Notes: generated by a model from the letters alone, not told the origin. A DNA stretch of 64,000 nt from Candidatus Bathyarchaeia archaeon (GCA_050012255.1 JBEKHN010000003.1:113992-177991); one strand, 5' to 3'; counted from the first letter of the stretch, positions 11,819-64,000 are shown. Made by a program: numbers and translations.

Positions 11819-11995
11819 GAAGCCACCCTTGTCGAATCAGATCATAACAGTGTAAGAGTATATTTTTTTGTGTTCTGGCACAATACGATTCTCACGCTTT
11901 GGATCAGTTTTTCGACCGTATGCCTAAGACTAAGCTGCGCCATAAAACTTGGCAGAAGCGAGTAAAAGCCTCGGCGTACGCGCTAAGGTGGTGTT

Positions 11996-36895: not shown

Positions 36896-36973
36896 GGGCC
36901 GGTCGTCTAGCTTGGTTAGGACATTGGCTTTACGAGCCAAAGGTCGCCGGTTCAAGTCCGGTCCGGCCCACCA
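36896..36973 (+). tRNA. tRNA-Val (anticodon TAC), CCA encoded, no intron
   Basis: Acceptor GGGCCGG/CCGGCCC, anticodon arm TTGGC-TTTACGA-GCCAA, T-loop TTCAAGT, ACCA end. Confidence 0.97.
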
Positions 36974-50148: not shown

Positions 50149-50580
50149 TCAAAGGCTACCGATTTTCGAGACAAGGTTGTCAATCTGGCTGACAATGATC
50201 CTGGACTGGCCTTCGGTGAAGTTGAGATTAAGATCATAGTCAGCATCGTTTCTTTTGGATCTAAAATCCTTGAACTGGAATGCGATTGTCCTGTGCCCGA
50301 GATCAAAAAGAGTCAAATAAAAAATTCGATGCAGGTTGAAAGAACGCAGGTATTGCCTGTCAAGTCTATTCAATCTTCTTTGATCTACTCTCCTTCTAGG
50401 GTATGCTTTTTGGATTTCTTTGATGAGCTGGAAGCTGTACTTCTTCTGCAATACAGACCCGGTAATGTGGTAAAGAGAATAATATGCACGACCTATTGCG
50501 GTCCTGGATTCTTCTTCCTGTATTACCTTCTGACGCATTATCCTCTTTGCATATTCAAGAAATCTGTCCTCGGTTATCAT
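50149..50580 (-). CDS. HEPN domain protein
   Basis: RTAIGRAYYSLYH and RNDADY motifs. Confidence 0.8.
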   Translation of the reverse strand: MITEDRFLEYAKRIMRQKVIQEEESRTAIGRAYYSLYHITGSVLQKKYSFQLIKEIQKAYPRRRVDQRRLNRLDRQYLRSFNLHRIFYLTLFDLGHRTIAFQFKDFRSKRNDADYDLNLNFTEGQSRIIVSQIDNLVSKIGSL

Positions 50581-50590
50581 TCTCTCTCGC

Positions 50591-51196
50591 TCATCTAGCG
50601 TCTAGAGTTATTCTAAATCGTTTCATTTCTCTTCTCCGAACACATTGCAAAGAGAAATTCAGTAGTTTATCGAAGAGACCGTAGGCCCGCTCGAATTCCG
50701 AAGGTTCTACTAATACCTTGATCCTTGGCTCCGCCCAATCATCGTACTCAGTGTCAGTTTCTAAGTCTATCAGTATCTTTGCTTTTATGCCCTGCTTTTT
50801 CATGAACTCAGAAATCCTAGTCGAAACTATGTCCAAACTTTTGTTCATATCGAGTTGTCTTTTCTGCCTCATAATAAAATCACGAACGATTTGGCTCATT
50901 TCATAAGGCTTCTGAATTATGACATGCCGAAAAATATCCGGAGCAACGAAGCCACTCTGATCGGACATCGCGAATAATTGATCACCATCAATTGGGAACG
51001 TAGCAAAAGGTTTTGGCCTAAGTTGCTTAACCTTCAAATTGGATCTTCCAAACTCTGTCAGTTCTTGAAAAGTGCCTCGATCGCCGTCCCTTGGAACAGT
51101 CTCAGCATAGCGACTTTCTGTGGCAAAGCTTTCACCATAAGGCTGTCCCACGGACTCTATGGCTGTTGAAGAGTTAAGTTCAGTGTTTGCTATCAT
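50591..51196 (-). CDS. Hypothetical protein, HEPN partner
   Basis: ATGA-coupled to upstream gene; acidic DTEYDDW motif. Confidence 0.7.
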   Translation of the reverse strand: MIANTELNSSTAIESVGQPYGESFATESRYAETVPRDGDRGTFQELTEFGRSNLKVKQLRPKPFATFPIDGDQLFAMSDQSGFVAPDIFRHVIIQKPYEMSQIVRDFIMRQKRQLDMNKSLDIVSTRISEFMKKQGIKAKILIDLETDTEYDDWAEPRIKVLVEPSEFERAYGLFDKLLNFSLQCVRRREMKRFRITLDAR

Positions 51197-51840
51197 CTAG
51201 TTCTGGCATCCTCTTCTAGCTTATCAAATATCTGCCTTAGCTTACTGTCTAAATGCTTGGCCAATTCCTTCACATCGTCCAGTTCGCCTCTACAGACTAT
51301 TTGCACGCGGTATCTCTTGCTGTGACTGACAAAAAAGGGCTCAATCGTCAAAGCGAGCCATTTTTTTGAAGTTGGATTGTTTCCTTTTGGGGCGATCCGC
51401 AGACCGATAGAACAAGCATCTATTCCGAGAACGTTGCCTATTTTCCCAACTTCCTTCACGCCTTGGCTGACTTTGGCCAAGACATCCATAGGATTGGCTC
51501 CCGTAGAAACAGTAAGATCTCCGACGAACTCGTGGAATATCATGGTTGCGGGATCGACACCAAGCATGTCGATGCTGATACCCATCAACTCTTCATATGC
51601 AGTAACAGCGTCAGTTGTCGACGTCTGGCTTCTAACCCCAATAGTTCGCCTTTCAGTGCTTGCGTATACTTCAATCGTACCTTTAATTGCAAGCAAATCG
51701 GGTGCGCGTTGCATTTCAGGTCCTTTTACGGTGTATCCTTTCTCCTCGAGCTTGTCTCTCAATCCAACATAATCCGGACTTAGCATCCAAATAGATGCTA
51801 TACTTAGATTGAAAGGAACGACCTCGAATTTCCGTTCCAT
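51193..51840 (-). CDS. Hypothetical protein, first gene of HEPN operon
   Basis: 215-aa ORF, GAGGGT RBS and TTTTAAA TATA-like box near 51877-51883. Confidence 0.75.
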   Translation of the reverse strand: MERKFEVVPFNLSIASIWMLSPDYVGLRDKLEEKGYTVKGPEMQRAPDLLAIKGTIEVYASTERRTIGVRSQTSTTDAVTAYEELMGISIDMLGVDPATMIFHEFVGDLTVSTGANPMDVLAKVSQGVKEVGKIGNVLGIDACSIGLRIAPKGNNPTSKKWLALTIEPFFVSHSKRYRVQIVCRGELDDVKELAKHLDSKLRQIFDKLEEDARTR

Positions 51841-52003
51841 CTGTGTTTACCCTCTATGATTAGTTACATTAGGTTGTTTAAAATTGTTGTGAATCTATGC
51901 AGTCAATTTCGATGCATGTTTCCGAGGTTAGCGCATGCTTTTCTAGCAATGCCGAGCATTCACAAATGCCAGATACGGCGATTCGCTTGAACTGCGTGAG
52001 CTG

Positions 52004-53479
52004 TTACCGGTGTGGGAGCATCATGGCGCCTACTCCGGGCGGTGGGGCTTCCAGGCTTGCGCGACAAGCTAGGGCTAGGGCGTAGAGTTGGTCGTCGTGG
52101 CGGCCTAGTGGATGCCAGAACTTGAGGTGGATTCGTGGTTGTGCGGTTTGTGGCTGAAGGTACTCATATTGCTGTTCGTTCATCTGCGTCATCAGTTGCT
52201 GATCGTCACCTGGGATCTTGAGCAGTTTCTTTTCCATGAGGATTTTGAGGTGGTTGAGCATGTTTTCTTTTTCGATGTCCGTGAAGAAGACGCCGCTGAC
52301 GCTTCCTGCTCTGATGGCTTGTAGCTCGTCGACTACGGCGTCTCCTACGCCCGTTTTGTCCACGTAGAGGCGTTCAAAGTTGAAGATTTGGTGGGCTCTC
52401 GCCACGTAGCCGACGACGTGTGGGTAGGGTGTGCCTAGAGGAAACTGGCGTTTGTGTGCGAGTCTGACTTGGCCTTTTTCGTTTTTTTGCACGATGATTA
52501 GAACGGTGTGGTCGACTTGTTTGCCGAGGTCCAAGCCTGCATAGTATGGCTGCTTAAGCTGCTGTGGCTTAGCCTTTTCGATGTCTTCGATGTAGGCGGC
52601 GGGAGAGTCAGGGTTGCCCAGCTCAGGGTCTATGCATTGCGCGATCAGGTCTATTGAAAAGAACGCGTTTGCAGCCTCAACCCAGAGTGCTTCTACCTCT
52701 CGCTTCCATTCTTCCGATGTCATTACGTCGTGCCACTCGTCGAGTTGTTGCTGGCTCACGAGGGGGCTTGAGCCGCTTGGGTAGTGGTGCACTGAGTAGC
52801 GTTTCCTGTCTAGGAAGGCTTTGTGAAAGACGTGGTTGAAGGCCATCGGCGTGCCGCTCATGACCAGGCCAGCGTTGGGCTTTGTTAGCATCATCATTAT
52901 TTCACTCGTGATCATCTCGCTGGGAACGATGCTGGCCTCGTCTATGAAGACCCAGTCCGGATGGTAACCTCTGAGCTTGTCTGGTGAGCATGGGAGGGCA
53001 ACGAGTCTTCCGCTCAGCGGCGGCTTGAGCCTGATGGTTGTGTGTGTGGTTCCAGGGTGTTGAATCATCTCTTTCATGAGCGGGTTGGCCATGATGGTGG
53101 AGTAGCAGTAGTCGAACATGATCATGCTCTGGCGCTGAGTGCTGCTGATGATGAGGCTCTCCACCTTGACTCTTGTGAACAGCAGCCACAGGTTCTTCCT
53201 GCTGAACACTAGGCTCTTGCCCCAGCCTCTTCCGCAGACGACAACGGTTTTGAGACTCATGTCTCTGAGCAGCTTCTGATGGTCTGAGGCCTGAACGAGC
53301 CACTTGTCTCCACACATCAGAACCGCATAGAAAACTGGGTCGTCAACGAGTCTGCGAGTCACTTCCGCGTAGCCGAGAAGCTGCCTCAACGCCGTCGGCT
53401 TCTGCCTCAAACCTTCAGATACAGACGCTGCAAAAGCTAAGTCACTGGTCACCTTCTGAACGAAAGTCTTCTCGTCCAA
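52004..53479 (-). CDS. terL: Terminase large subunit (ATPase + RNase H-like nuclease)
   Basis: Walker A CGRGWGKS, LRG, Walker B WVFIDEA, SGTP, GLDLG, DKTGVG, HDDQLYALALA. Confidence 0.9.
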   Translation of the reverse strand: MDEKTFVQKVTSDLAFAASVSEGLRQKPTALRQLLGYAEVTRRLVDDPVFYAVLMCGDKWLVQASDHQKLLRDMSLKTVVVCGRGWGKSLVFSRKNLWLLFTRVKVESLIISSTQRQSMIMFDYCYSTIMANPLMKEMIQHPGTTHTTIRLKPPLSGRLVALPCSPDKLRGYHPDWVFIDEASIVPSEMITSEIMMMLTKPNAGLVMSGTPMAFNHVFHKAFLDRKRYSVHHYPSGSSPLVSQQQLDEWHDVMTSEEWKREVEALWVEAANAFFSIDLIAQCIDPELGNPDSPAAYIEDIEKAKPQQLKQPYYAGLDLGKQVDHTVLIIVQKNEKGQVRLAHKRQFPLGTPYPHVVGYVARAHQIFNFERLYVDKTGVGDAVVDELQAIRAGSVSGVFFTDIEKENMLNHLKILMEKKLLKIPGDDQQLMTQMNEQQYEYLQPQTAQPRIHLKFWHPLGRHDDQLYALALACRASLEAPPPGVGAMMLPHR

Positions 53480-53757
53480 CGTCTAAGTCCCATCCTGCCG
53501 CGTCTTGCAATTCTCGGCTCAACATTTCTGATGAAGTCGCCCAGAGTCGCCTCGTTCAGCTCGGCATCTGCACCCCTCTGCGCAAGAAGTTTACTGAAGA
53601 CACTTGCATGGTAAGCAAGAGCATTCGCTACGCTTAGCTTCTCATGTATCGACAGGTCAGGGTTCTCCATCATGTCCTTCAAGCTGCGGAGAATTTCCCA
53701 CTCATCCTCGATGAGGCTTTCAAGACTTGCCGACCTCTTCTTCTCTCGCTCTGACAC
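53449..53757 (-). CDS. Helical protein overlapping terL, candidate terminase small subunit
   Basis: 102 aa, immediately upstream of and overlapping terL by 31 nt, basic C-tail, GGGGGT RBS. Confidence 0.6.
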   Translation of the reverse strand: MSEREKKRSASLESLIEDEWEILRSLKDMMENPDLSIHEKLSVANALAYHASVFSKLLAQRGADAELNEATLGDFIRNVEPRIARRGRMGLRRWTRRLSFRR

Positions 53758-53780: not shown

Positions 53781-54122
53781 GATCCAAATATGAACCAGAC
53801 AAACACGTTCATTCCTGCCCATCTATCTCTCAAGCCCAGTCTGGGCTTCACGTCTTCTGCCGTTCTAGGAAAGCCAGTTGTTTTCTCATTGCCTCGGCCT
53901 TTTTCAGCATGCTCAGCAAAGTCTGTTCTGGATCAGTCATCCAACGACGCTTGCAAAACTTCTAGTTCAACATCAGTTGTTTTCGAGGAATGACGTAACG
54001 TGACGCCACTCAAAGGCGGCCAAAGAATTCGCGCGTACCATGTACAGTTTGGACCGAGCTGTTAAAAAAGCAGCGGTGAGACGACATCTCCGAGGAGCAG
54101 AGAGTGAAGTTAAAATGAAGTT
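53781..54122. repeat. Diverged ~345-bp direct repeat, copy A
   Basis: Aligns by eye with 63187-63533, e.g. gatccaaatatgaacc, ggaaagccagttgttttctcat, gtgacgccactcaaaggcggccaaaga, gctgttaaaaaagcagc, gtgaagttaaaatg. Confidence 0.95.
53848..54009 (-). pseudogene. Small ORF in repeat A with internal TAG
   Basis: MASRYVIPRKQLMLN*KFCKRRWMTDPEQTLLSMLKKAEAMRKQLAFLERQKT; TAG at 53962-53964 where copy B has TGG. Confidence 0.55.
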
Positions 54123-54345
54123 TAATTATGTTGACAGCCCCTACCGGTCCATTCCCAATTGGGGTCAAGTCCCTAGAGACTGACGCCCTTTTGAGTACAG
54201 GTCGCAAAAAAATGATGGCCTCGAGAATATAGCTCCAGCGTTTCTATGCTTCGTTTCGCGCGCGCTTAGACTACCCATGGTTTTCCGTGATAATCGAGTT
54301 TATATGTGTTAAGAACGTACTAAATTCTAAGAGGTGATTGAACAA

Positions 54346-54465
54346 ATGCAAATGCATCGTGGGCGTGCGGGTGGTATAGCTGGATGGCTAGTTTCTGCAA
54401 TTGTCGTAGTTATACTAGTGATAATTTTGGTCGTTGTCCTCAGAGTACTTATTCACTTGTTCTAA
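54346..54465 (+). CDS. 39-aa single-pass membrane microprotein
   Basis: GAGGTGA RBS; MQMHRGRAGGIAGWLVSAIVVVILVIILVVVLRVLIHLF. Confidence 0.7.
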   Translation: MQMHRGRAGGIAGWLVSAIVVVILVIILVVVLRVLIHLF

Positions 54466-54650
54466 GGCAAACTCGAAGAAGAATATGAGAAAACTCAAGT
54501 CTTCACAGCAACAGAAGCCAAACTAGGGGTTCAAAAATGAGTGAAAGGGAAGGGACAAACTATGATTGTTTGTGAATACTGCCATGAAGAAATGCGCGTG
54601 GTGCTACGCTTAAATACGCAAATATTGACTTGGAAATAGAGGTGATAGGA

Positions 54651-54788
54651 ATGCCGGATAAGAAGAAAAAAGTTGAAGGGGCTGCTGAGAGAGCTGGTGA
54701 AGCAGTCGGAGAAGGCCTCAAGAAAGGTGCTAAAGCCGTAGAAGATTTTGGGAAGGGAATAAAGAAAAGAATCGAGAAAAAAGAATAA
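54651..54788 (+). CDS. 45-aa CsbD/LEA-like hydrophilic protein
   Basis: GAGGTGA RBS; MPDKKKKVEGAAERAGEAVGEGLKKGAKAVEDFGKGIKKRIEKKE. Confidence 0.75.
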   Translation: MPDKKKKVEGAAERAGEAVGEGLKKGAKAVEDFGKGIKKRIEKKE

Positions 54789-54973
54789 GAAAGGCAGCGC
54801 GCGGTAATTTAGTTTAGGTTTGCGATTCTGGGAACCCATGTTTCTTTTTCATTTCTCAGATATTGAGCAAGCGCGCGCTATGACAGCATGAATAGGACAA
54901 ACAGAATATATTGACCAACTTTGCTCATTATGGGCGACATGCGCTTAGGCAATTGATAGGGGGCATTTGGTTA

Positions 54974-55843
54974 ATGAGAAAGCGAAAGCCTGAGGAAGAT
55001 GCTAGAGAGGATTTGACCTTCAGGCTCAGAAGAGGCACGCAAAAGATCATGTCGAGATCTTCTAAGTTGGTGGGACAGAGGTTTAACCCGGGCGATTTCG
55101 ATGTCGTGAAAGTCAAAATCAATATCTCAGGGCTTTCGACCCTCTTCCAAGGCTACCGAATAGTGCACATCAGCGACATCCATTACGGGCAATGGATCTC
55201 TGCCGATCGCTTGAAGGGCGTGGTTGGCTTGATCAACCAGCAGGAGCCGGACATCGTAGCGATCACAGGGGATTTCGTATCCTACTCAGGGAGGAATGTC
55301 GAGGACCTCATCCCCGTGCTCAGGGGAATACGTGCGCGAGACGCGACGGTGGCAGTGCTAGGCAACCACGATTATTGGCTTGGAGCGAAGAGGATCCGCT
55401 CGATACTAAGCGAAAGCAAAATACTAGAGCTGAACAACGACGTTTACACGGTGACTAGAGAGGGATGTGTGCTGCATATTGCAGGGGTCGACAGCACCAC
55501 TGTGAAGAAGAAGCAACTGAACAAGGTGCTGCAGAAGCTGCCGCCCAACGGACCAGCAATTCTGCTGGCCCACGAGCCAGACTTCGCCGACATCAGCGCG
55601 GAGACGAAGAGGTTCAGCCTCCAGCTCTCCGGACATTCCCATGGGGGCCAGTTTGTGATACCCAAGCTCGGAACTCCTTTCCGCGGTGACGGTTTCAGGA
55701 AGTATCCCCTTGGAAGGTATCAGGTGGGGGAAATGGTCCAGTACACCAACCGAGGCTTAGGCACAAACGCGTTCTGGATACGCATCAACTGCGCGCCTGA
55801 GATTACGGTGATTGATCTGCAACCTAAAGAGAAGAGAGCATGA
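54974..55843 (+). CDS. Metallophosphoesterase (YkuE-like)
   Basis: SDIH, TGDF, GNHD, HEP, SGHSHGGQ; start probably ATG 54974 (track 54911). Confidence 0.9.
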   Translation: MRKRKPEEDAREDLTFRLRRGTQKIMSRSSKLVGQRFNPGDFDVVKVKINISGLSTLFQGYRIVHISDIHYGQWISADRLKGVVGLINQQEPDIVAITGDFVSYSGRNVEDLIPVLRGIRARDATVAVLGNHDYWLGAKRIRSILSESKILELNNDVYTVTREGCVLHIAGVDSTTVKKKQLNKVLQKLPPNGPAILLAHEPDFADISAETKRFSLQLSGHSHGGQFVIPKLGTPFRGDGFRKYPLGRYQVGEMVQYTNRGLGTNAFWIRINCAPEITVIDLQPKEKRA

Positions 55844-57858
55844 CAAAAGATAATTTCACACGCGCACTAGTTGTATGGTTTTTAACATCTTTAGGTATCT
55901 TCTTTACGGGCGTTCTGACTGGATTTTACGCCCGCAATCTTGTCGTCGCGCTGATCGCGACCGCCGGGCTTGGGTTAATTAATGCACTGCTTTGGCCCCT
56001 CTTATCGAGGTTAGCACTCGCGCGCTCTGTGATAACGTTCGGTTTGAGTGCGCTACTATTGAACGGCATAATAATCTGGTTGCTGGCTTCCTTCACTTCG
56101 GAAATTGAGGCCTCTGGGTGGGGGTTACTTTTGCTCCCCTTGAACATAGCGCTGATCAATACCGCGGTCTCGGGGATACTCACCATCGACGACGATGCAT
56201 CATTCTACCGTTCGGTGTTCAAGAAGATGAAGGGGCGTGCAGAGAAGGCAACGGAGAACAAAGACAAGCCAGGCTTCATCTTTCTGGAGATCGACGGGTT
56301 GGCTGAGACGATTCTCCGCAAAGCGATAGAGAACGGGACGATGCCAACCCTGGCAGGGTGGGTCAGCAGCGGAACGCACAAGATAAAGGGATGGGAAACG
56401 GATTTTTCGTCCCAGACCGGCGCAAGCCAAGCGGGCATATTGCACGGGAACAACAAAGACATCCCTGCCTTCAGATGGGTGGAAAAAGCGAAAGGCAACA
56501 AGGTCATATCGACCACCGGCATGGGCGATTCCCAGGCGGTTGAGGCACGCATCTCGGATGGGAACGGCTTGCTTGTAACCGATGGACACGCTGTAGCCAA
56601 TCTCTATTCTGGTGACGCCAAAGACAACATCTTCGTCTACAGCAAGCTCAGCAAAATAAGGGAGTTGTACAGCCAGTCGTGGAACACTTTCTACGCGGTC
56701 TCCTACAATCTTGTCCACACGACCGCGTACACCCTCTGGGAGATGGTGCTGGAGGCCAGGTCCAGGTACAGGCAGGGGCGAAGGAATACGCTACCCAGAC
56801 TGCGCCACCGCGGGCGCTTATACTACTTCACAAGGGCGGTGGCGGATACCTTCCTGCGCGAGTTGAGCACTTACACTGTCATAGGCGACATTATCGCGGG
56901 TGACAAGGATGTCGTGTATACTACGTTCATGGGGTATGATGAGGTGGCGCATCATTGCGGCATCTCGGACGATGAGGCTTTCTACGTTTTGAGAAAGCTG
57001 GACAGGTGCATAAAGAGGATAGAGGCGGCAAAGGCATACGCGCAACGCCCGTACTACCTCTGCGTCCTTTCAGACCACGGTCAGACCAACGGCGCCACGT
57101 TCAAGCAACGTTATGGTCACACCCTGGCAGATCTTGTGCAGAAGCTTCTGCCTGAGGGACATAGGACGTACTTCGAGTTTGACTCCAACCAGGACCACTT
57201 CGGACAGATGGTGATAGCGCCTCTGCAGGACGTAAGAAATAGAGTGACTCGAAAGTCGAAGAAAAAGGAGGACAAAGAGATTGATGCAATCGTGCTGGCC
57301 TCGGGCAACGTGGGCCTGATATATTTCACACAATGGGCGGATCGGATAAGCTTGGAGGATATCAATAAGACCTATCCAGAGATGGTGAAGGGTTTGTCGC
57401 AGCATGAGGGCGTCAGTTTTGCCATGATCCGCTCGAAGGAGCGGGGGCCGGTCGTCATAGGCGCGAAGGGCAAGTATTACCTCGCGGACGATAAGGTCGA
57501 GGGTGAGAACCCGTTGGCCAAATTCGGGAAGCGGGCTGCTGCGCACCTGCGCAGGTTGGACAGCTTCAACTGCGTCCCTGATATCCTTCTCATGAGCATG
57601 TACGACACGGAGAAAGATGAGGTGGCGGCATTTGAAGAGCTGATTGGTAGCCACGGTGGCCTGGGTGGCACCCAGTCGAAGCCCTTCATACTGCATCCTT
57701 CTGAATGGGACCTTGAGAAGGAGGAGATCGTCGGCGCCGAGAACGTTTGTCGGCTATTTAAGATGGAGATGGCGAATATTTCGACGAAGTCGGACGGAAC
57801 CAAACGGAATGATAACAATGGAACAGTGCACGCGGATAAGACGGCGCGTGTGACTTGA
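55840..57858 (+). CDS. 4-TM 'phage holin family' (YvlD-like) domain fused to alkaline phosphatase/phosphodiesterase-superfamily domain
   Basis: N-terminal TMs with GLINALLWP; EIDGL, SQTGASQ, GYDEVAHH, SDHGQ, GSHGGLGG. Confidence 0.82.
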   Translation: MTKDNFTRALVVWFLTSLGIFFTGVLTGFYARNLVVALIATAGLGLINALLWPLLSRLALARSVITFGLSALLLNGIIIWLLASFTSEIEASGWGLLLLPLNIALINTAVSGILTIDDDASFYRSVFKKMKGRAEKATENKDKPGFIFLEIDGLAETILRKAIENGTMPTLAGWVSSGTHKIKGWETDFSSQTGASQAGILHGNNKDIPAFRWVEKAKGNKVISTTGMGDSQAVEARISDGNGLLVTDGHAVANLYSGDAKDNIFVYSKLSKIRELYSQSWNTFYAVSYNLVHTTAYTLWEMVLEARSRYRQGRRNTLPRLRHRGRLYYFTRAVADTFLRELSTYTVIGDIIAGDKDVVYTTFMGYDEVAHHCGISDDEAFYVLRKLDRCIKRIEAAKAYAQRPYYLCVLSDHGQTNGATFKQRYGHTLADLVQKLLPEGHRTYFEFDSNQDHFGQMVIAPLQDVRNRVTRKSKKKEDKEIDAIVLASGNVGLIYFTQWADRISLEDINKTYPEMVKGLSQHEGVSFAMIRSKERGPVVIGAKGKYYLADDKVEGENPLAKFGKRAAAHLRRLDSFNCVPDILLMSMYDTEKDEVAAFEELIGSHGGLGGTQSKPFILHPSEWDLEKEEIVGAENVCRLFKMEMANISTKSDGTKRNDNNGTVHADKTARVT

Positions 57859-58003
57859 CATCATAGTAAAGCGTCCCATTGACAAAACTCCTTTTGACTT
57901 CTTATCCCCAGCCTACGCTACAACTTGGTGCGTGTTTGAGAAACTAGACATAGGTTGAAAAAAATGAGTGCGCCTCAGATGCGTGCGGTCCGTTCTGTGG
58001 ACG

Positions 58004-58174
58004 CTATCTTTTTTCTCCGGTCAAGACGTGTCTTCCAGTCAAAAGCCTGTAGACTATTATGATTACGGCAATCACAAGCAGTATATGTATCAGTGCCCCT
58101 ACGCCAGGTAGAGCAAAGAATCCGACTAACCACAGTATCACGAGAATAACAACAATTGCCCAAAAGACGTCCAT
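58004..58174 (-). CDS. lmo0937-family small membrane protein
   Basis: WAIVVILVILWLVGF...GALIHILLVIAVIII pattern. Confidence 0.8.
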   Translation of the reverse strand: MDVFWAIVVILVILWLVGFFALPGVGALIHILLVIAVIIIVYRLLTGRHVLTGEKR

Positions 58175-58333
58175 TTTCATCCTCATTTTTCCTCCTGATT
58201 TCAAGAAGTCCCATACCTCATATTTAAAACTTCGTAGAACCTAGTTTGGCGCGCGCGCAAAACCAAGAAGGTCGATGTTAAGTCAGCGCGCAAGCTTTTT
58301 TAAGCTGAACCAACGACCCTTCTAATGGTAGAT

Positions 58334-58492
58334 ATGTCAACTTTTGATAAAGCCAAGAAAAAAGTTAAAGAAGCAGCTGAAAAGACAGAGGAAGAAGCCA
58401 AGGAAGCTGGAGGAAAAATAAGAAGAGCCGGCAAGAAAGGCGTTCAAAAAGCCAGAAAAATTGGCCGTGAAACGAAAGAAAAACTGAAATGA
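58334..58492 (+). CDS. 52-aa CsbD/LEA-like hydrophilic protein
   Basis: MSTFDKAKKKVKEAAEKTEEEAKEAGGKIRRAGKKGVQKARKIGRETKEKLK. Confidence 0.7.
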   Translation: MSTFDKAKKKVKEAAEKTEEEAKEAGGKIRRAGKKGVQKARKIGRETKEKLK

Positions 58493-58620
58493 CTTTTCGT
58501 CATTTCTGCCTATCTCATCGCTATTTATCTTACGCTAGGTCAATTGATCTCTGCTTTACATGTCCCGCGCGCGCTAAGTGCAAAGCTGTGTGTAATGAAA
58601 TAGACAAATGGTGAAAGATT

Positions 58621-58941
58621 ATGGCAAGAATAACTTTTGTTGGGGTTGTTAGTGACCAAAAGAAGGCAGGTGAGGTTGTTACTGTAACAGTGACTCTTCC
58701 TAGTGGAGATACAATGCATGTCGCAGCTGCAACTTTAGAAGACAGGACCTATTCTGTTGTTCAAGAATTCATTGCTGAAGGAGATTATCGTGCAGTTGCA
58801 AATGTCGAAACTGATCTTGCCACGAGTGATGTAGTTTGCTTCACAGTGACAAAGGCACTGACAGAAAGGATAGTGACTCTAGATGTACGAAGGACGGTGA
58901 GAAACAGAAAGGGAAAAGCGAAAACAGAAAGAAGGACATGA
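58621..58941 (+). CDS. Hypothetical beta-rich (Ig-like?) protein
   Basis: GGTGA RBS; alternating V/T strands. Confidence 0.6.
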   Translation: MARITFVGVVSDQKKAGEVVTVTVTLPSGDTMHVAAATLEDRTYSVVQEFIAEGDYRAVANVETDLATSDVVCFTVTKALTERIVTLDVRRTVRNRKGKAKTERRT

Positions 58942-59084
58942 AAACCACTAGCGCGCGCTAATAAATCCTATTATGTGAATGCGTGTCAAAACTGGGCAGG
59001 CTTTGTTCTTTCACGTTTCAAACGATAGGTGAGTCATTAGTACTCGTAGCTAACGGATTTATACATAAAATCACTTGAAGCTTT

Positions 59085-59366
59085 TTGATGATGCAGAAAG
59101 GTTCGTTCTCGCAGACGAAGGGCAACAGGGATCGGTTTAGCATATTCTCAGACGTGCTGACTTGTGCGATTAGAGGAACTAGGAAAACGGAAATCATGTG
59201 CAGGGTCGGGCTAAGCGGTCTTCAGTTGCACAAGTACATGGACGCGCTCACTAGATATGGGCTACTGGACGTACAAATTCTCAAAAAGACAGCCACCTAC
59301 AGAACCACTCGTAAAGGAAAGAGCTTCCTCAGAGCATTCGGCGCATTGGTAGAACACTTAAGCTAG
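59085..59366 (+). CDS. Archaeal winged-helix protein
   Basis: RDRFSI...KTEIM...YRTTRKGKSFL. Confidence 0.75.
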   Translation: MMMQKGSFSQTKGNRDRFSIFSDVLTCAIRGTRKTEIMCRVGLSGLQLHKYMDALTRYGLLDVQILKKTATYRTTRKGKSFLRAFGALVEHLS

Positions 59367-59509
59367 CATAAGTCACAGAACGCGCGCTAATCTCATCCAC
59401 CTTGATCAAGGTTTGGGGCCCGCGCGCTTGCTCACTTTTTGAAGAAATCAAGGCCGGATTCTATGGTTAATGGTCAAAGTTGACCGCTAACGTGAGTGTT
59501 TGGCTAGGC

Positions 59510-60022
59510 TTATTCCTTGGCGTATGATTCGACTAAGCAGTTTGGTGACAACGCCTTTAGCTGTACGCTTCCCTTCATGCTAACCAGAAAAGTCCTGAAG
59601 TTCTGAAGGGAACCACCCCAGTCTCTTCGGAACCTCTGATAAAACTTTGCGAAGTCCGCGTAGTCCTTGTGCACTGTAACCATGACCGCGTCTGCGTCCA
59701 TTCCCTGTCCAGTGCTGGCGAACATGATGCTTGGCTGTTCCGCTGTCCATTTCTTTGCTTTGTCTTCGAGAGGGTTAACAAGCTCCTTTGAGGTGGAGAA
59801 CGTGAATGATATTAAATCAAAACCCAAGTAGGACAAGTTCGGGATCACAGTATACTGTTCAATCGCTTCTTTCTCCAGAATTTTCCGAAGTCGGGTCACC
59901 GTTGGCTGAGAGAGCTGCAGAGCTCTAGCTAGCTCCCTGTCGCTCCGCTTTGAATTCTTAATCAGCGCGAAAAGCAGCTTGGTCAGGTTAGCGCGCTGCG
60001 CGCGAGTGCGCAATTCCTTCAT
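59510..60022 (-). CDS. Lrp/AsnC family transcriptional regulator
   Basis: NSKRSDRELARALQLSQPTVTR, IPNLSYLGF. Confidence 0.85.
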   Translation of the reverse strand: MKELRTRAQRANLTKLLFALIKNSKRSDRELARALQLSQPTVTRLRKILEKEAIEQYTVIPNLSYLGFDLISFTFSTSKELVNPLEDKAKKWTAEQPSIMFASTGQGMDADAVMVTVHKDYADFAKFYQRFRRDWGGSLQNFRTFLVSMKGSVQLKALSPNCLVESYAKE

Positions 60023-60348
60023 ATGCCATGCTTATGCTGACACCTCTTATGAAACTTTGGATTGGTGCGGCTGAGCGCGCGCGAGGGGCTTTTACCGTGG
60101 TCGCTGAAGCGATTATTTAGGAGCTTTAGGAGCGTCGGGAGCGTTGGCATATCCGGTTGAAAAAGGTGCTTGGAATCTGCCCACGTTCTCTCTGATGATG
60201 CCATACCCCTTTTCTGCAAGGGAGGTTGGTAACTTGCCCAACTTTAGTGGTTTTGCATCGCGTTTGAGCGTGAGTTTGATTGTCGATCTCATTATTCCCT
60301 TGTCCAACGTTACACCTGCAAGATCCGAGTAGCTGCGCGCGCGCTCAC

Positions 60349-60882
60349 CTAGAAGTGATTCATGACAAAATCCCTAACGGTTCTATGATTAGCCATAAGT
60401 TCAACGATCTTTTTTGTAGCTTTGGTTATCTGCGTATCAAACAGTCTTGTTATAACCAACGTTAACAAAAACACAAATATGCCGAATCCAAAATTTACAA
60501 TAGCGTTTACTGAGCCCATGTACCATATGAAAAGGAATGTAGCTGCCGCACCTATCTCTCCCATGATGAAGGATCTTATGATGAAATAAAGTTTCTGCAC
60601 CCACGTAGAAAACAACAGAACCTTGATCACTGCTCTTTTCTCGATGTTACTTTCAGCTCCACTGCTTTGCTTTGTAGCACTTCCTATCTGTTGCAGCACC
60701 CTTTTTGCGTAATGAACGTCTGATAAACGCAACATCATTCTTGCATAATGAGCGTCTGACAAATCCTTGGAACTTGCGCTTTCAAGCTCTAACAAAATCC
60801 TTTGTGCTATTTCATCTATTTCAGCATCCACTCTATCTATTTCAGCAACCTTAGTCACCATTATCCCACCGGAATATTCCAA
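60349..60882 (-). CDS. Hypothetical membrane protein (2 TM)
   Basis: 177-aa ORF with two C-terminal hydrophobic segments. Confidence 0.65.
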   Translation of the reverse strand: MEYSGGIMVTKVAEIDRVDAEIDEIAQRILLELESASSKDLSDAHYARMMLRLSDVHYAKRVLQQIGSATKQSSGAESNIEKRAVIKVLLFSTWVQKLYFIIRSFIMGEIGAAATFLFIWYMGSVNAIVNFGFGIFVFLLTLVITRLFDTQITKATKKIVELMANHRTVRDFVMNHF

Positions 60883-61031
60883 GTATTTTGGTTACCAAGT
60901 CGTTTAATATGATTTTTGCCTGCTCTGCGCGCGCGCAATTACTCAAGTGTAAAGAAAACATATAGATCTGTCTGCTCACAGCAAAGTCTTTAATTGTGTA
61001 TGCGACCAAGAGCGTCGTTGCCGGACTGGGA

Positions 61032-61908
61032 GATGCGCAAGGGATTGATTAAGCGAGTTAGTATCGTTTTTGCGAATTATTGTCCACACTGTGTACCGTT
61101 TTCTCTGCGTAATGCTAACAAAATGTCCGAAGACCTTGGGGTTCCGCTTCTTACTCTTGACATAGAGATCCCTGAGCAGCTTGAGGCAGCTGACAGGCTC
61201 GTCGAAGAACATGGCGATTGGTCGGAGGATTATCTTATCCCTCAAGTCTTTGTTGAACACATGGACGGGAGAGTTAATCACGTATTAACTGGTTTTTCAG
61301 AGGCAGTTTCGGTGACAGAAGGTTCTTGGAAAGCGCTGTTTTCGAGTAGTTACTATCAAAGTCTCGTACATGAACAACCAGTTATCTCGTATCCTCACTC
61401 ATCATCCCATCGTAAGTCGTTGAAGGAGTTTGTAGAGGCATACCTAACGTTCGATGGACAATGTTACAGGCACTGCGATAGCCTTTCCTCCTTCGTAGAT
61501 CTGCGGTCCGACTCGGATAATATCATCGGAGCATATGTCTGCCCCGGCGGATACGTGTCTAGGGTCGTCTACTTCAGTGTTTACCCAGATGTCAACCAAT
61601 TAAGAAGCTTCCTTAGCTCCCAAGTCGGTAAGGAAATTGTTACCGATCGCGATATCCGTCCAGCTACTAGGCACGGGTGGGAATTGGGAAGCGATGCCAT
61701 GGCTGAGATTGGCGAGGTGAGCCCCACCGGTGTCATAAAGGAGATTTATTGGACAGTCTATGCCAAAACCGAAGACGAAAGAAGACGTGGAGTTTTTGTC
61801 TGCTCACATCTTGGGAAAGGAAGGGGATGCAACAGACTATTCGTTCAAGACAAGAAGTCAAGAAGCAGATTGTGCCCAAAGTGTAAAGCGCGCGCTAGTT
61901 GCATTTAA
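61032..61908 (+). CDS. Thioredoxin-like (CPHC) domain protein with Cys-rich C-terminus
   Basis: ANYCPHC, IPQVFV, CYRHC, C-terminal CSH...C and CPKC; start ATG 61032 (track 60994). Confidence 0.7.
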
Positions 61909-62087
61909 CAATTTGCGCTAGCTGGGTGCGCTACGCCATCCCTTCCCGCTGCATACTCCACACTTGCGGCGCGCGCAGAGATGGACTCGACCCCATTTGG
62001 GTTCTAATCCCCACCGTTCTGTACCCTAGTGCAAAGAGCAGTGCAAACTGTCCCATGTGTGAGTTAATGTTGGTCAACGGAGCGCGC

Positions 62088-62259
62088 ATGCTTGTTCCGA
62101 AATTGGCCTAAAATGGTTTTTATTCGGGTTTCATGGTTTAGGCAGGGTTTTGGGCTCCATATCAGTCCTTGATCTTCATAGGTACTTGTTTTCCTCGAGA
62201 GCGGCAGAAACGTGCAAAATGGAATTATGATCATTCTTGACCATTTTAGGAACACGCAT
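62088..62259. mobile_element. 172-bp MITE-like element flanked by GCGCGC
   Basis: TIRs ATGCTTGTTCCGAAATTGG and (revcomp) ATGCGTGTTCCTAAAATGG, 16/19 identical; GCGCGC at 62082-62087 and 62260-62265. Confidence 0.8.
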
Positions 62260-62309
62260 GCGCGCTTCCTATATAACAGTGTTAAGCAGATTGGAAGAAG
62301 AAGAGCAGT

Positions 62310-63407
62310 GTGAACATGCGGATTAAGAATGTTCTGTTTGATTTCGGCGATACGTTGGTGCAGGCTTCTCCTCAGTACAGTCTCGACAAGTGCTTGTCGT
62401 GTCTTCTGAAGAGTCTGGCATGCAACGGCATCATGGTTTCCCTTGAGGACTTCAAGGGAGCTTATGAGTTGACTTATGAGAGAATTCTTGCCGGCAACTC
62501 TCTTCGAGAAGTGCCATTCAGCGTGGTGGTTTCCCGAACGCTCGGTCTGTGCGGCGTTTCTTTGAAGCCAGCGGATGAGGCGGTCGTGGAAGCGACGGAA
62601 GCTTTCATGGAGTGCTGGGTACAAGCGAGAACGATGGAGAGAAGCGTCCCATATGTGCTTCGGACGTTAAGAAAGAGGTACAGGTTAGGCGTCGTCTCTA
62701 ACCTGGCGTATTCGCCTGCGGTCAGTAGGACTCTGATGCGGTTCGGTGTCGCAGAGCTTTTCGACGTGATCGTCGTGTCGGCTGATGATGGATGGCGAAA
62801 GCCAAGCCCAAGGATTTTCAGGAAGGCTTTGCAGCTCATGCGAATATCAGCATCGGAGACGGTTTACGTAGGAGACGAGTTGGACCATGACGTTGAAGGC
62901 GCCAAGAAAGTGGGAATGCACACCATATTGCTGAAGAGACCGTCAACCAACATGGCTGCAAGCAACGCTAAACCCGACATGACTATTTATACATGGAAAG
63001 AACTGCCCAACGCTGTCAAAGCCCTAGAGAAGCTCGGAAACGCTGCGAAAATGCTCACTGCAGCGCGCGCCCTAAGGGGCAACTTCCATCCACGGCTTCC
63101 AAGCGTAAACCCAATGGACTCACTTTCTCTTCCTGACAGGCTAGGGATCCCTCCCCTCCTAGGTTTCAATGTACCATGGATATTTGGATCCAAATATGAA
63201 CCCGACAAACACGTTCATCCCTGCCCACCCATCTCTCCAGCCCACTCTAGGCTTCACGGCTCCTGCCGTTTTCGGAAAGCCAGTTGTTTTCTCATAGCTT
63301 CGGCCCCTTTTTTCAGCACGTTCAGCAAAGTCTCTTTTCGATCAATCATCCAACGGCGCTTACAAAACGTCCAGTTCACCATCAGTCGCTTGCCAGAAAT
63401 GACGTAA
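62310..63407 (+). CDS. HAD-superfamily hydrolase whose frame runs on into repeat B
   Basis: FDFGDTL, VSN, RKPSPRIF, VGDELDHDVEGA; domain ends near 63030, rest is repeat-derived. Confidence 0.8.
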   Translation: MNMRIKNVLFDFGDTLVQASPQYSLDKCLSCLLKSLACNGIMVSLEDFKGAYELTYERILAGNSLREVPFSVVVSRTLGLCGVSLKPADEAVVEATEAFMECWVQARTMERSVPYVLRTLRKRYRLGVVSNLAYSPAVSRTLMRFGVAELFDVIVVSADDGWRKPSPRIFRKALQLMRISASETVYVGDELDHDVEGAKKVGMHTILLKRPSTNMAASNAKPDMTIYTWKELPNAVKALEKLGNAAKMLTAARALRGNFHPRLPSVNPMDSLSLPDRLGIPPLLGFNVPWIFGSKYEPDKHVHPCPPISPAHSRLHGSCRFRKASCFLIASAPFFSTFSKVSFRSIIQRRLQNVQFTISRLPEMT

Positions 63408-63533
63408 TGTGACGCCACTCAAAGGCGGCCAAAGAGTTAGCGTGCGTTACATACAGTTCGGGCCAAGCTGTTAAAAAAGCAGCGCGGTGAAACGACATCT
63501 CCAAGCAGCAGAGGGTGAAGTTAAAATGGAGTT
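63187..63533. repeat. Diverged ~345-bp direct repeat, copy B
   Basis: Aligns with 53781-54122. Confidence 0.95.
63254..63418 (-). CDS. 54-aa ORF in repeat B
   Basis: MASHYVISGKRLMVNWTFCKRRWMIDRKETLLNVLKKGAEAMRKQLAFRKRQEP; synonymous changes and an in-frame 3-nt indel versus copy A. Confidence 0.55.
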   Translation of the reverse strand: MASHYVISGKRLMVNWTFCKRRWMIDRKETLLNVLKKGAEAMRKQLAFRKRQEP

Positions 63534-63880
63534 GAAGTTCAGAAAAGACAAATAACTATCAAAAAGTGCGAGCGTTTCCAAGATCACACCGATAAGCAAG
63601 TCTGCAAAGTAGCAGAGACTGCTCATGAAGCGCTTAGCTTGTCGAGCTAGGCTTCAAGTACTTGCTTGGCGAACAGAGTGACAGCGGAAAGTTGTCTAAA
63701 TAGGAAGAGTTGCTATGCCTCGGCTAGCAGAGCAAAGAGGTCTGTAGTCTAGGCAAAGAACCCGTAATCTAGGCTGGATTGCCAGTCAATTGAAGATATC
63801 TCTCGCGCAACCCCCTTTTTCTATTGTTCAACATGGTGGGAAAGCTTTACAAGTGTTGTGAAGGACTAATTGTAGCGCGC

Positions 63881-64000
63881 ATGCCTGTTCCTAAATTAGT
63901 TTGCGAAGTACCTTATGCTTCTGGATCTGCCTGGTTTGTGCGTGTTGATGGCGGCTTGTGCTGTGAAGAGCAGGATGAGCAGGCAGAGTTGAGCGTGGAA
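63881..64000 (-). mobile_element. End of an insertion sequence: TIR plus probable transposase C-terminus
   Basis: TIR ATGCCTGTTCCTAAATTAG (16/19 to MITE TIR) next to GCGCGC 63875-63880; ORF tail FHAQLCLLILLFTAQAAINTHKPGRSRSIRYFAN* stops at 63896 inside the TIR. Confidence 0.65.

Follow-up and report, generated by a model that had tools for sequence, protein, structure and literature searches.

The closest known parallels to the sequence described here are the palindrome targeting of insertion sequences (IS) belonging to the IS1182 family and the cyanobacterial octamer HIP1. The sequence in question is a short palindromic tract of alternating G and C, [A](GC)4-5[T], which recurs between the small genes of a variable island near the end of a 64-kb stretch of DNA (the window; JBEKHN010000003.1:113992-177991) from a Candidatus Bathyarchaeia archaeon. 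Bathyarchaeia are abundant, uncultured archaea of soil and sediment whose modes of genome change are poorly understood. A deletion with HIP1 at its borders has been described. The octamer is frequent in coding DNA, its occurrence is conserved between genomes (PMC5861425), and it is tied to orphan methylases (PMC4390886). IS1272, a member of the IS1182 family, is reported to insert into palindromic hairpins, delete part of the target and move an adjacent gene with one IS copy (PMC4923244). For an over-represented (GC)4 word in archaea, no description was found in searches of titles and abstracts on the word and on related topics.

The window forms the terminal 64 kb of contig C3 in genome G000, a 2.35-Mb metagenome bin of 38 contigs with 5% estimated contamination. 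The mcrA gene was not found in G000, and identity as a methanogen was therefore rejected. Comparisons were made with G001, the closed single-contig chromosome of a sister species (about 93% identical to G000), with the outgroup G007 (about 89% identical to both G000 and G001), and with contigs from four public metagenome runs of three studies (X1 to X4), aligned at 90% likeness. Gene calls and alignment chaining were done with our own simple scripts. A tract was defined as a maximal alternating G/C run of at least 8 nt, and shorter runs of 6 to 7 nt were tallied separately.

G000 contains 393 tracts. Runs of 6, 7, 8, 9 and 10 nt numbered 517, 171, 201, 123 and 63, and those of 11, 12, 14 and 16 nt numbered 2, 2, 1 and 1, so that the distribution bumps at 8 to 10 nt and then ends abruptly, without decay. 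Because tract lengths stop at 10 nt without a tail, microsatellite slippage is an unlikely origin. The 8-mer GCGCGCGC occurs 434 times, compared with about 31 copies expected from an order-3 Markov model. This observed/expected ratio of 13.9 is the highest among 8-mers with at least 50 copies. The runner-up among palindromic 8-mers, leaving aside the alternating G/C pair, has 129 copies, and CGCGCGCG (236 copies) overlaps the same tracts. A preliminary description of this DNA had proposed that the word is enriched over background, which is borne out both in the genome and in the window, but it had regarded the tracts as a property of the island; they are instead genome-wide and partly class-wide.

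The phase of the tract is fixed, with 176 G-first and 25 C-first 8-mers. The run is preceded by A at 245 and followed by T at 222 of the 393 tracts, and AGCGCGCGCT has 74 copies in G000 versus 7 for TGCGCGCGCA. Conservation of the flanks was not found further than 2 nt from the run on either side. The tracts were 26-fold denser between genes than within them (7.6 versus 0.29 per 10 kb; 330 of 393 intergenic, 56 coding), and no bias towards 5' or 3' gene ends was detected genome-wide. Deletion by microhomology between two GCGCGC tips was also considered. It predicts mostly 6-nt products and was rejected because the 6-nt form is scarcely enriched (AGCGCGCT, 2-fold only, versus 10- to 14-fold for the 8- and 10-nt forms). 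A second repeat family has an internal tract, TGGCTTGTCCCTAAATTCGCTGATA + GCGCGCGCG + TAAGAGCATATAC..., and is present at about 2577-2880 of the window (C3:116568), C2:95436, C12:11219 and C34:2791; its word GCATATAC is over-represented, with 68 copies versus 13 expected.

The tracts mark structural change. Each G000 tract, with 400 bp per side, was compared with G001, which has 455 tracts with the same length stop, and random intergenic sites in three draws of 393 served as controls. One G001 alignment spanned 51 of the 393 tracts, versus 187, 207 and 202 control sites. An alignment ended within 25 nt of 122 tracts, versus 36, 32 and 31 controls, so that homology breakpoints coincide with tracts as the preliminary description had anticipated. 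A flank match stopped short at 105 tracts (75 to 86 controls), and no match in G001 was found for 115 (75 to 85 controls). The ends of high-scoring segment pairs clustered from -5 to +10 nt from the tract edge. Of the 51 spanned tracts, 16 were identical in G001, 32 had substitutions or small length changes, and 3 were simple insertions. The density of intergenic tracts was 4.5-fold higher in DNA unaligned to G001 than in aligned DNA (12.25 versus 2.71 per 10 kb).

The colinear G000-G001 chain contained 132 indels of at least 40 bp with a short side of at most 40 bp. The joint of the short allele carried a tract of at least 8 nt in 33 of these and a 6- to 7-nt run in 13 more. At the borders of replaced regions, a tract was present within 25 nt in 47 of 488 cases, against a background of 0.7% for 50-bp windows placed at random and 3.1% for those in intergenic DNA. 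Twelve of the 33 tract indels were polarised by means of one outgroup, G007, with about 0.48 Mb of its sequence; the joints were judged by eye, and recombination between strains could mislead the parsimony. In #1, #2, #4 and #7 the tract is ancestral, and DNA was inserted into or beside it. In #5, 189 bp replaces an ancestral tract. One tract-bearing border of #23 is common to G001 and G007, and for #3 and #24 G007 has the short allele without a tract. The set of twelve is completed by #20, an ambiguous case, and by #6, #9 and #10, described below.

Two mobile elements of the window, a miniature inverted-repeat transposable element (MITE) and the end of an IS, are in direct contact with GCGCGC. 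They are as follows.

62081..62266, no strand: MITE of 186 bp with 45-nt terminal inverted repeats (TIRs); both ends abut GCGCGC; 98% identical to the C13 copy
63874..64000, + strand: left end of an IS-like element (GCGCGC plus terminal repeat), at which the contig breaks off; the final 127 nt recur without difference as the final 127 nt of contig C34 (8785-8911)

The contact of both MITE ends and of the IS end with GCGCGC had been noted in the preliminary description and is correct, and other TIR copies have the same flank, as it had expected. G000 has about 70 terminal repeats in which GCGCGC is followed by ATGCnTGTTCCnAAAT. GCGCGC flanks 55 of 102 loose terminal-repeat matches, and the GC run beside the repeat is exactly 6 nt at 61 of 71 real ends in G000 and at 32 of 39 ends in G001. 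TA precedes the GC run at 40 of the 71 G000 ends. The MITE is non-coding and multi-copy, with copies on C13, C10, C21, C6, C3 and C34, and it shares its first 22 nt with the IS on C24.

The autonomous element, about 1.1 kb long, encodes a transposase with DUF772 and DDE_Tnp_1 domains, in agreement with the DDE type guessed earlier. In the C24 copy the match to DDE_Tnp_1 (PF01609) has an E value of 8.4e-12 and that to DUF772 (PF05598) 1.7e-9; the G001 copies score 55 to 70 bits for DDE_Tnp_1. With the two halves of a frameshifted gene as queries, the best NCBIfam match was IS1182 (73 bits; cut-off, 270), followed by IS5_4 (61 bits; cut-off, 140). The transposase, of about 333 aa compared with 488 positions in the IS1182 model, stays below every curated cut-off. 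Units of 1.0 to 1.2 kb bounded by terminal repeats are located at L096:11426-12556 (28-nt arms, 82%), C24:15248-16332 and G001:389080-390159. A second transposase subfamily in G001 (about 39 to 42% identity) has the repeats CAGCTTGTTGCAAAAT, flanked by GCGCGCGC and GCGCTC. The GCGCGC flank is shared by two transposase subfamilies and several MITE types. Intact transposase frames of 329 to 341 aa are present in G003 and G009. In G001, the transposase of the second subfamily (L096:11513-12498) consists of two overlapping open reading frames (ORFs) of 116 and 217 aa (overlap, 11845-11863), and the single frameshift may be programmed or may stem from mutation or from an error in the long reads.

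The sites occupied by MITEs were compared with their empty counterparts. At C3:43055 the filled site reads TA-GCGCGC-MITE-GCGCGC-TA, the empty G001 site TA-(GC)4-TA and the outgroup site TA-TCGCGAGC-TA. In this one clean pair, 8 nt correspond to 6 + 6 nt, a gain of 4 nt. The flanks measure 8 + 6 nt in ev7, and ev13 has a gain of 1 nt; GCGCGC could equally belong to the element. A tract or near-tract was present at the empty site in 5 to 6 of 8 complete pairs, and for #2 and #7 the outgroup G007 has a tract or degenerate tract at the empty site. For the nested C34 MITE a usable paralogous empty site was absent within G000, and the G001 copy served instead. In ev7 of G001, a 284-aa ORF flanked by two 170-bp MITE copies in direct orientation is inserted at a tract; in G000 and G007 this tract has no insertion. 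A composite hop of this kind had been envisaged in the preliminary description. In two segments (2.2 and 4.8 kb), just one of the two borders has a MITE end.

Beyond G000, AGCGCGCGCT was present at 7 to 114 copies in each of 10 other genomes of the genus. In 20 genomes from other genera of the family and order it was present at 0 to 1 copies, and the reversed control word at 0 to 4. In a sample of 151 genomes of the class the trait was patchy: 13 further genomes, in families f1 (genus g24), f26, f27, f29 and f35, had 13 to 131 copies (controls, 0 to 5). Four genomes (G084, G096, G124 and G126) were rich instead in the reversed word TCGCGCGCGA, with 13 to 26 copies, which hints at other lineage-specific GC words.

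In the window itself, alternating G/C runs of 6 nt or longer number 43, and 14 of these reach 8 nt. Only three of the latter, at 2603, 10160 and 24281, fall within the first 54 kb; the other 11, of 8 to 10 nt, lie in 54257-63070. The positions of these tracts had been given correctly, as had the perfect palindrome at 58949-58960. The 6- to 7-mers that had been described are also present, but two starts were off by one (the runs begin at 54797 and 58286), and those at 59998, 55791, 56019 and 54030 had been omitted. GCGCGCGC has 17 matches at 14 loci of the window; 100 dinucleotide-preserving shuffles gave a mean of 0.82, and none reached 17. The 11 tracts of the region compare with 1.61 expected at the genome's own rate (Poisson P = 1e-6), and its 9 intergenic tracts with 2.23 expected at the intergenic rate (P = 5e-4). 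The region is among the dozen or so densest stretches of the genome, not the densest one (10 tracts in its 10-kb window versus a maximum of 15 on contig C24). As had been observed, the tracts lie mostly in spacers or at gene ends: by our own gene calls, 9 of the 11 are intergenic, 61888 falls in the last codons of a 304-aa ORF, and 63063 lies in the tail of a haloacid dehalogenase (HAD) ORF. The runs, to which no strand is assigned, are as follows.

54257..54265: tract CGCGCGCGC, 9 nt, intergenic by our own gene calls
54797..54803: GCGCGCG, 7-nt run
54871..54878: (GC)4 tract, at which the homology of a G007 contig stops
58249..58258: (GC)5 tract, 10 nt, with X1 contig joints at 58257/58259
58286..58291: GCGCGC, 6-nt run
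58566..58574: tract CGCGCGCGC, 9 nt
58949..58960: perfect palindrome TAGCGCGCGCTA, enclosing the 8-nt run at 58951; X1 inversion joint near 58971
59381..59427: CGCGCGC twice, 7 nt each, 40 nt between (runs at 59381 and 59421); indel variants in X1 and X4
59991-59996 and 59998-60004: 6- to 7-nt runs at the 5' end of the helix-turn-helix (HTH) ORF
60075..60083: tract, 9 nt; a block shared with G007:C2 begins 3 nt downstream
60335..60344: (GC)5 tract; G007:C2 has 346 bp of other sequence in its place
60927..60936: (GC)5 tract, separating two segments found on different G007 contigs
61888..61895: (GC)4 tract, right end of the 304-aa ORF segment
61969..61976: (GC)4 tract
63063..63070: (GC)4 tract; one G001 homology block begins at 63062

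The genes and segments between these runs, and the features that adjoin the island, are as follows.

54911..55843, + strand: metallophosphoesterase ORF, 310 aa (Pfam PF00149, E 1.3e-13)
55840..57858, + strand: 672-aa ORF with a holin-like N-terminus of four transmembrane segments and a type I phosphodiesterase domain (Pfam PF04020, PF01663)
57984..58225, - strand: small segment with a 66-aa ORF (58004-58204), in other contexts in G003, G007 and G009
58621..58941, + strand: 106-aa ORF, no family assigned in scans
59085..59366, + strand: winged-helix protein, 93 aa (Pfam PF14947, E 1.9e-13)
59510..60022, - strand: HTH protein, 170 aa
60349..60882, - strand: 177-aa ORF segment, 96% identical to G007:C2, homology bounded by the tracts at 60335 and 60927
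60994..61908, + strand: 304-aa ORF segment, present once in G007 and twice in G001
62310..63407, + strand: HAD hydrolase ORF; G001 and G007 homology begins at the right GCGCGC of the MITE (62260)
53781..54125 (left) and 63187-63536 (right), + strand: 352-bp direct repeat, 85% identity, bracketing the island
52004..53479, - strand: terminase large subunit of a virus-like remnant adjoining the island (PHROGs phrog_2, E 1.2e-32)

Several of the island segments recur elsewhere with tracts at their borders. The blocks 60086-60335 and 60345-60928 are both found on G007:C2, with homology ending at tracts; 60920-61887 is found on G007:C3 and twice in G001; and 62260-63359 is found in G001 and on G007:C6, starting at the GCGCGC of the MITE. 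The 346 bp that G007 has at the (GC)5 of 60335 contain a GC run 45 nt from the right border of that segment. The 304-aa segment has (GC)4-5 on both sides in all three contexts that were read. The tract is located 0, 7 or 12 nt past the same gene end, and the left ends vary too. The ends of one segment differ by 5 to 19 nt between copies, an outcome not expected of conservative site-specific recombination. At 61888-61908 of the window, the 304-aa ORF takes its final codons (..ARASCI) and its stop context from the (GC)4 tract; the gene in G001 and G007 extends 7 to 12 nt further before its tract.

The virus-like remnant spans 50149-53757 of the window and also encodes a phrog_5176 protein. A terminase-related signal, suggested in the preliminary description as an alternative, is unlikely, given the position of the terminase gene beyond the tract-rich stretch and the genome-wide spread of the tracts. 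G001 has three related copies of the 352-bp bracketing repeat. An X4 contig joins 54125 to 62009, and another contig returns from 62289 to 54118, which makes the end of this repeat a rearrangement point. A 46- to 47-nt element with the perfect 18-nt palindrome ATATTTGGATCCAAATAT is located at 63153-63199. It has copies of 90 to 100% identity on at least 6 G000 contigs and many copies in at least 8 of the 10 other genus genomes. A short repeat (57 to 76 nt) at 54465-54553 has copies on C5, C6, C12, C21 and C23; it coincides with a spike in metagenome depth, and numerous contigs terminate at 54545/54546. The only Rfam match in the window was tRNA-Val at 36896-36973.

Joint variants of the A(GC)4T form were observed in the metagenome contigs. 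Position 57816 is joined to 58591 via GCGCGCGCATA in three runs (X2, X3 and X4), with 774 bp missing. In X3, 58016 is joined to 58226 via AGCGCGCGCTC, which replaces the 209 bp of 58017-58225, and in X4, 54829 is joined to 54934 via AGCGCGCGCTA, which replaces the 104 bp of 54830-54933. Strand-switch joints are present at 58065/58257 and 58971/60350. In an X4 variant and in G007:C2, deletions extend on both sides of a tract, and the tract is kept. Three further rows with filler among the metagenome joints lack a tract. Because the contigs were aligned at 90% likeness, these joints stem from relatives, and their sides of 34 to 40 nt are modest. Parts of the island without contig cover were not counted as absence.

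The interpretation favoured here, tentatively, is that [A](GC)4-5[T] is the homing site and the residue of IS1182-like transposition and that the island was built by cycles of such transposition. On this reading, every tract would be a copy of a single fixed, short palindrome that marks rearrangement joints in this lineage, and the palindrome would be the preferred landing site of an IS1182/IS5-like DDE IS and its MITEs. An element would enter the middle of the tract, converting 8 nt into 6 nt + element + 6 nt. Single elements or pairs could move neighbouring genes to other tracts, and loss of the element would restore one tract, often with flanking DNA lost. Repeated cycles could yield unrelated small gene segments joined by tracts, as in the window at 54.2 to 63.9 kb. 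We infer that transposition, and not another tract-specific break-and-join activity, makes most of the joints. A transposon-built array had already been proposed in the preliminary description. The filled and empty sites and the cargo pairs speak for it, but it is called into question by the broken G001 copies and by the distribution of the transposase and of the TIR among tract-rich genomes.

These and several other observations weigh against transposition as the sole cause. In #6, #9 and #10 (3 of the 12 polarised indels), the tract-bearing short allele is derived and a new tract thus stands at a deletion joint; the other two genomes retain 0.3 to 0.9 kb of single-copy DNA whose borders have neither a tract nor a terminal repeat. 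The writing of a new tract at a deletion joint in tract-free DNA is unaccounted for by the transposon model. Target duplication, which had been postulated for each insertion, cannot alone produce new tracts in tract-free unique DNA. Most long alleles consist of unique DNA and not of mobile repeats, and tract insertions without deletion are rare (3 of 51). Central insertion into tracts of 8, 9 and 10 nt would predict less uniformity than the exact 6-nt run beside the terminal repeats shows. The closed G001 chromosome has only one frameshifted and one broken transposase copy. Across the class, tract richness correlates only weakly with the transposase, a homolog of which was detected in 6 of 14 tract-rich versus 29 of 137 other genomes of the sample. 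DUF772 and DDE matches were found in 5 of the 10 other genus genomes and also in tract-poor genera. The TIR pattern was present in 1 of 10 tract-rich genomes outside the genus and absent from 9, in four other families. The tract-free deletion joints, the weak transposase correlation and the nine tract-rich genomes without the TIR point to a cause beyond this transposon family.

Such a cause might be an IS-independent activity that breaks and rejoins DNA and writes or uses the [A](GC)4-5[T] linker, with the IS and MITEs merely exploiting the palindrome; this is somewhat unlikely, although it ranks closest to transposition. A nuclease, a recombinase or an end-joining route could be the agent. 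It would accommodate the new tracts of #6, #9 and #10, the population contigs that swap 104, 209 and 774 bp of the window for a short linker, and the tracts kept despite bidirectional deletion (#31, G007:C2 and the X4 variant). The strict 8- to 10-nt length limit, the fixed phase and the tract richness of nine genomes of four other families without this terminal repeat are also in line with it, as is the weak transposase correlation. However, a candidate enzyme was not found, and we know of no precedent for a tract-writing joining activity; the metagenome joints come from relatives and are not directly seen events, and the other tract-rich families may carry other MITE families. In a more specific and slightly less probable version, several Bathyarchaeia lineages would write a fixed, untemplated palindromic linker, A(GC)4-5T, at deletion, insertion and inversion joints, and IS1182-like elements would only home to it. 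If GCGCGC were instead the outermost part of the element, the tracts could be excision footprints of 4 to 5 nt per tip between A/T or TA flanks, like the scars of Tc1/mariner-type elements. The uniform 6-nt run and the frequent preceding TA agree with this, and A(GC)4T and A(GC)5T would equal 5 + 5 and 6 + 6 nt of AGCGCGC tips. The empty sites for C13:26335 and C34:5743 lack a GC run, and the G001 allele at C10:59511 (GCGCGC + AT + 5 nt) resembles a tip remnant. Footprints are nevertheless improbable: the outgroup already has a tract or near-tract at #2 and #7, which would require two independent losses; plain 10- to 12-bp footprints without deletion account for only 3 of 51 spanned tracts; and AGCGCT, expected if overhangs anneal, is not enriched (479 copies versus 522 for TGCGCA). 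The inner repeat GCTTGTT..AAAT, which may resemble the very terminus of the IS903 repeat, would then also place GCGCGC outside the element. The tract could, finally, be a selected palindrome like HIP1 (with a role in nucleoid structure, protein binding or methylation-linked repair) and its link to breakpoints secondary. The singular over-representation of one octamer palindrome and its patchiness among Bathyarchaeia families fit this, and a HIP1-like signal, named as an alternative in the preliminary description, comes about as near to the data as the reading that was preferred there. As a full explanation it is nonetheless very improbable, given that 330 of 393 tracts are intergenic, that of the 51 spanned tracts only 16 have an identical counterpart in the sister species, and that most tracts lie in unshared DNA. 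A link to C5 DNA methylase was rejected for lack of correlation with tract richness: PF00145 is present in G000 but was detected in 3 of 14 tract-rich and 19 of 137 other genomes, a comparison that covers the C5 class, with N4 and N6 enzymes outside it. Chance, composition or assembly, for which the fragmented state and estimated contamination of the G000 bin might speak, is refuted as a source of the tracts: none of the 100 shuffles reaches the observed count, the closed relative has the same length spectrum, and tracts are present in all 10 other genus genomes and in the four public runs.

In practical terms, one 8- to 10-nt word flags about a quarter of the larger indels between sister species and most seams of the variable island, and the tract can therefore serve as an easily recognised sequence signal of rearrangement joints and of mobile gene segments in Bathyarchaeia. 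It leads to testable hypotheses, either palindrome homing by an IS1182-like transposase or an unrecognised joining activity. De novo writing of the linker, if it occurs, would constitute a new mechanism of genome plasticity and a new way of building cassette arrays that needs neither an integrase nor a transposon end.

Compared with known systems, the tracts share with repetitive extragenic palindromes (REPs), their paired form (REPINs) and the associated tyrosine transposases (RAYTs) the occurrence of hundreds of short, lineage-specific intergenic palindromes. REPs, however, are imperfect palindromes of 20 to 40 nt, whereas conservation here ends 2 nt from the run. The Y1 transposase (PF01797) was found in 0 of 31 genomes, with matches in control genomes, and the REP/RAYT idea was rejected on this ground. 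The two 170-bp MITEs around the 284-aa ORF of ev7 resemble a composite transposon or MITE-flanked cargo, but most island segments end in a tract only, without an element, and the ev7 copies are in direct orientation. As in integron arrays, small unrelated genes are separated by a short recurring site, and the same gene is found in arrays of other genomes. In contrast to integrons, no integrase family was matched in a Pfam scan of the 8 main island ORFs (smaller ORFs lay outside the scan), attC sites (57 to 141 nt) were not found, the joints sharing 8 to 10 nt only, and the genes lie in both orientations.

The transposase shares its DUF772 + DDE_Tnp_1 architecture with the IS1182 family (IS1272/TnSha1 of staphylococci), which is also its best NCBIfam match, although it is much shorter than the 488-position model and its host is an archaeon. 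Palindromic insertion, target loss and gene transport by one copy, as reported for IS1272, have counterparts here, the last in the one-ended 2.2- and 4.8-kb segments. IS1272 uses hairpins without primary sequence preference and makes no duplication, whereas the target here is fixed at 8 to 10 nt and one clean pair shows a 4-nt gain. HIP1 (GCGATCGC) is the nearest parallel that is not a transposon. In both cases one octamer palindrome stands far above all others, but the Bathyarchaeia tract is intergenic, located in accessory DNA and poorly conserved, is found as inserted filler at joints and showed no link to C5 methylases.

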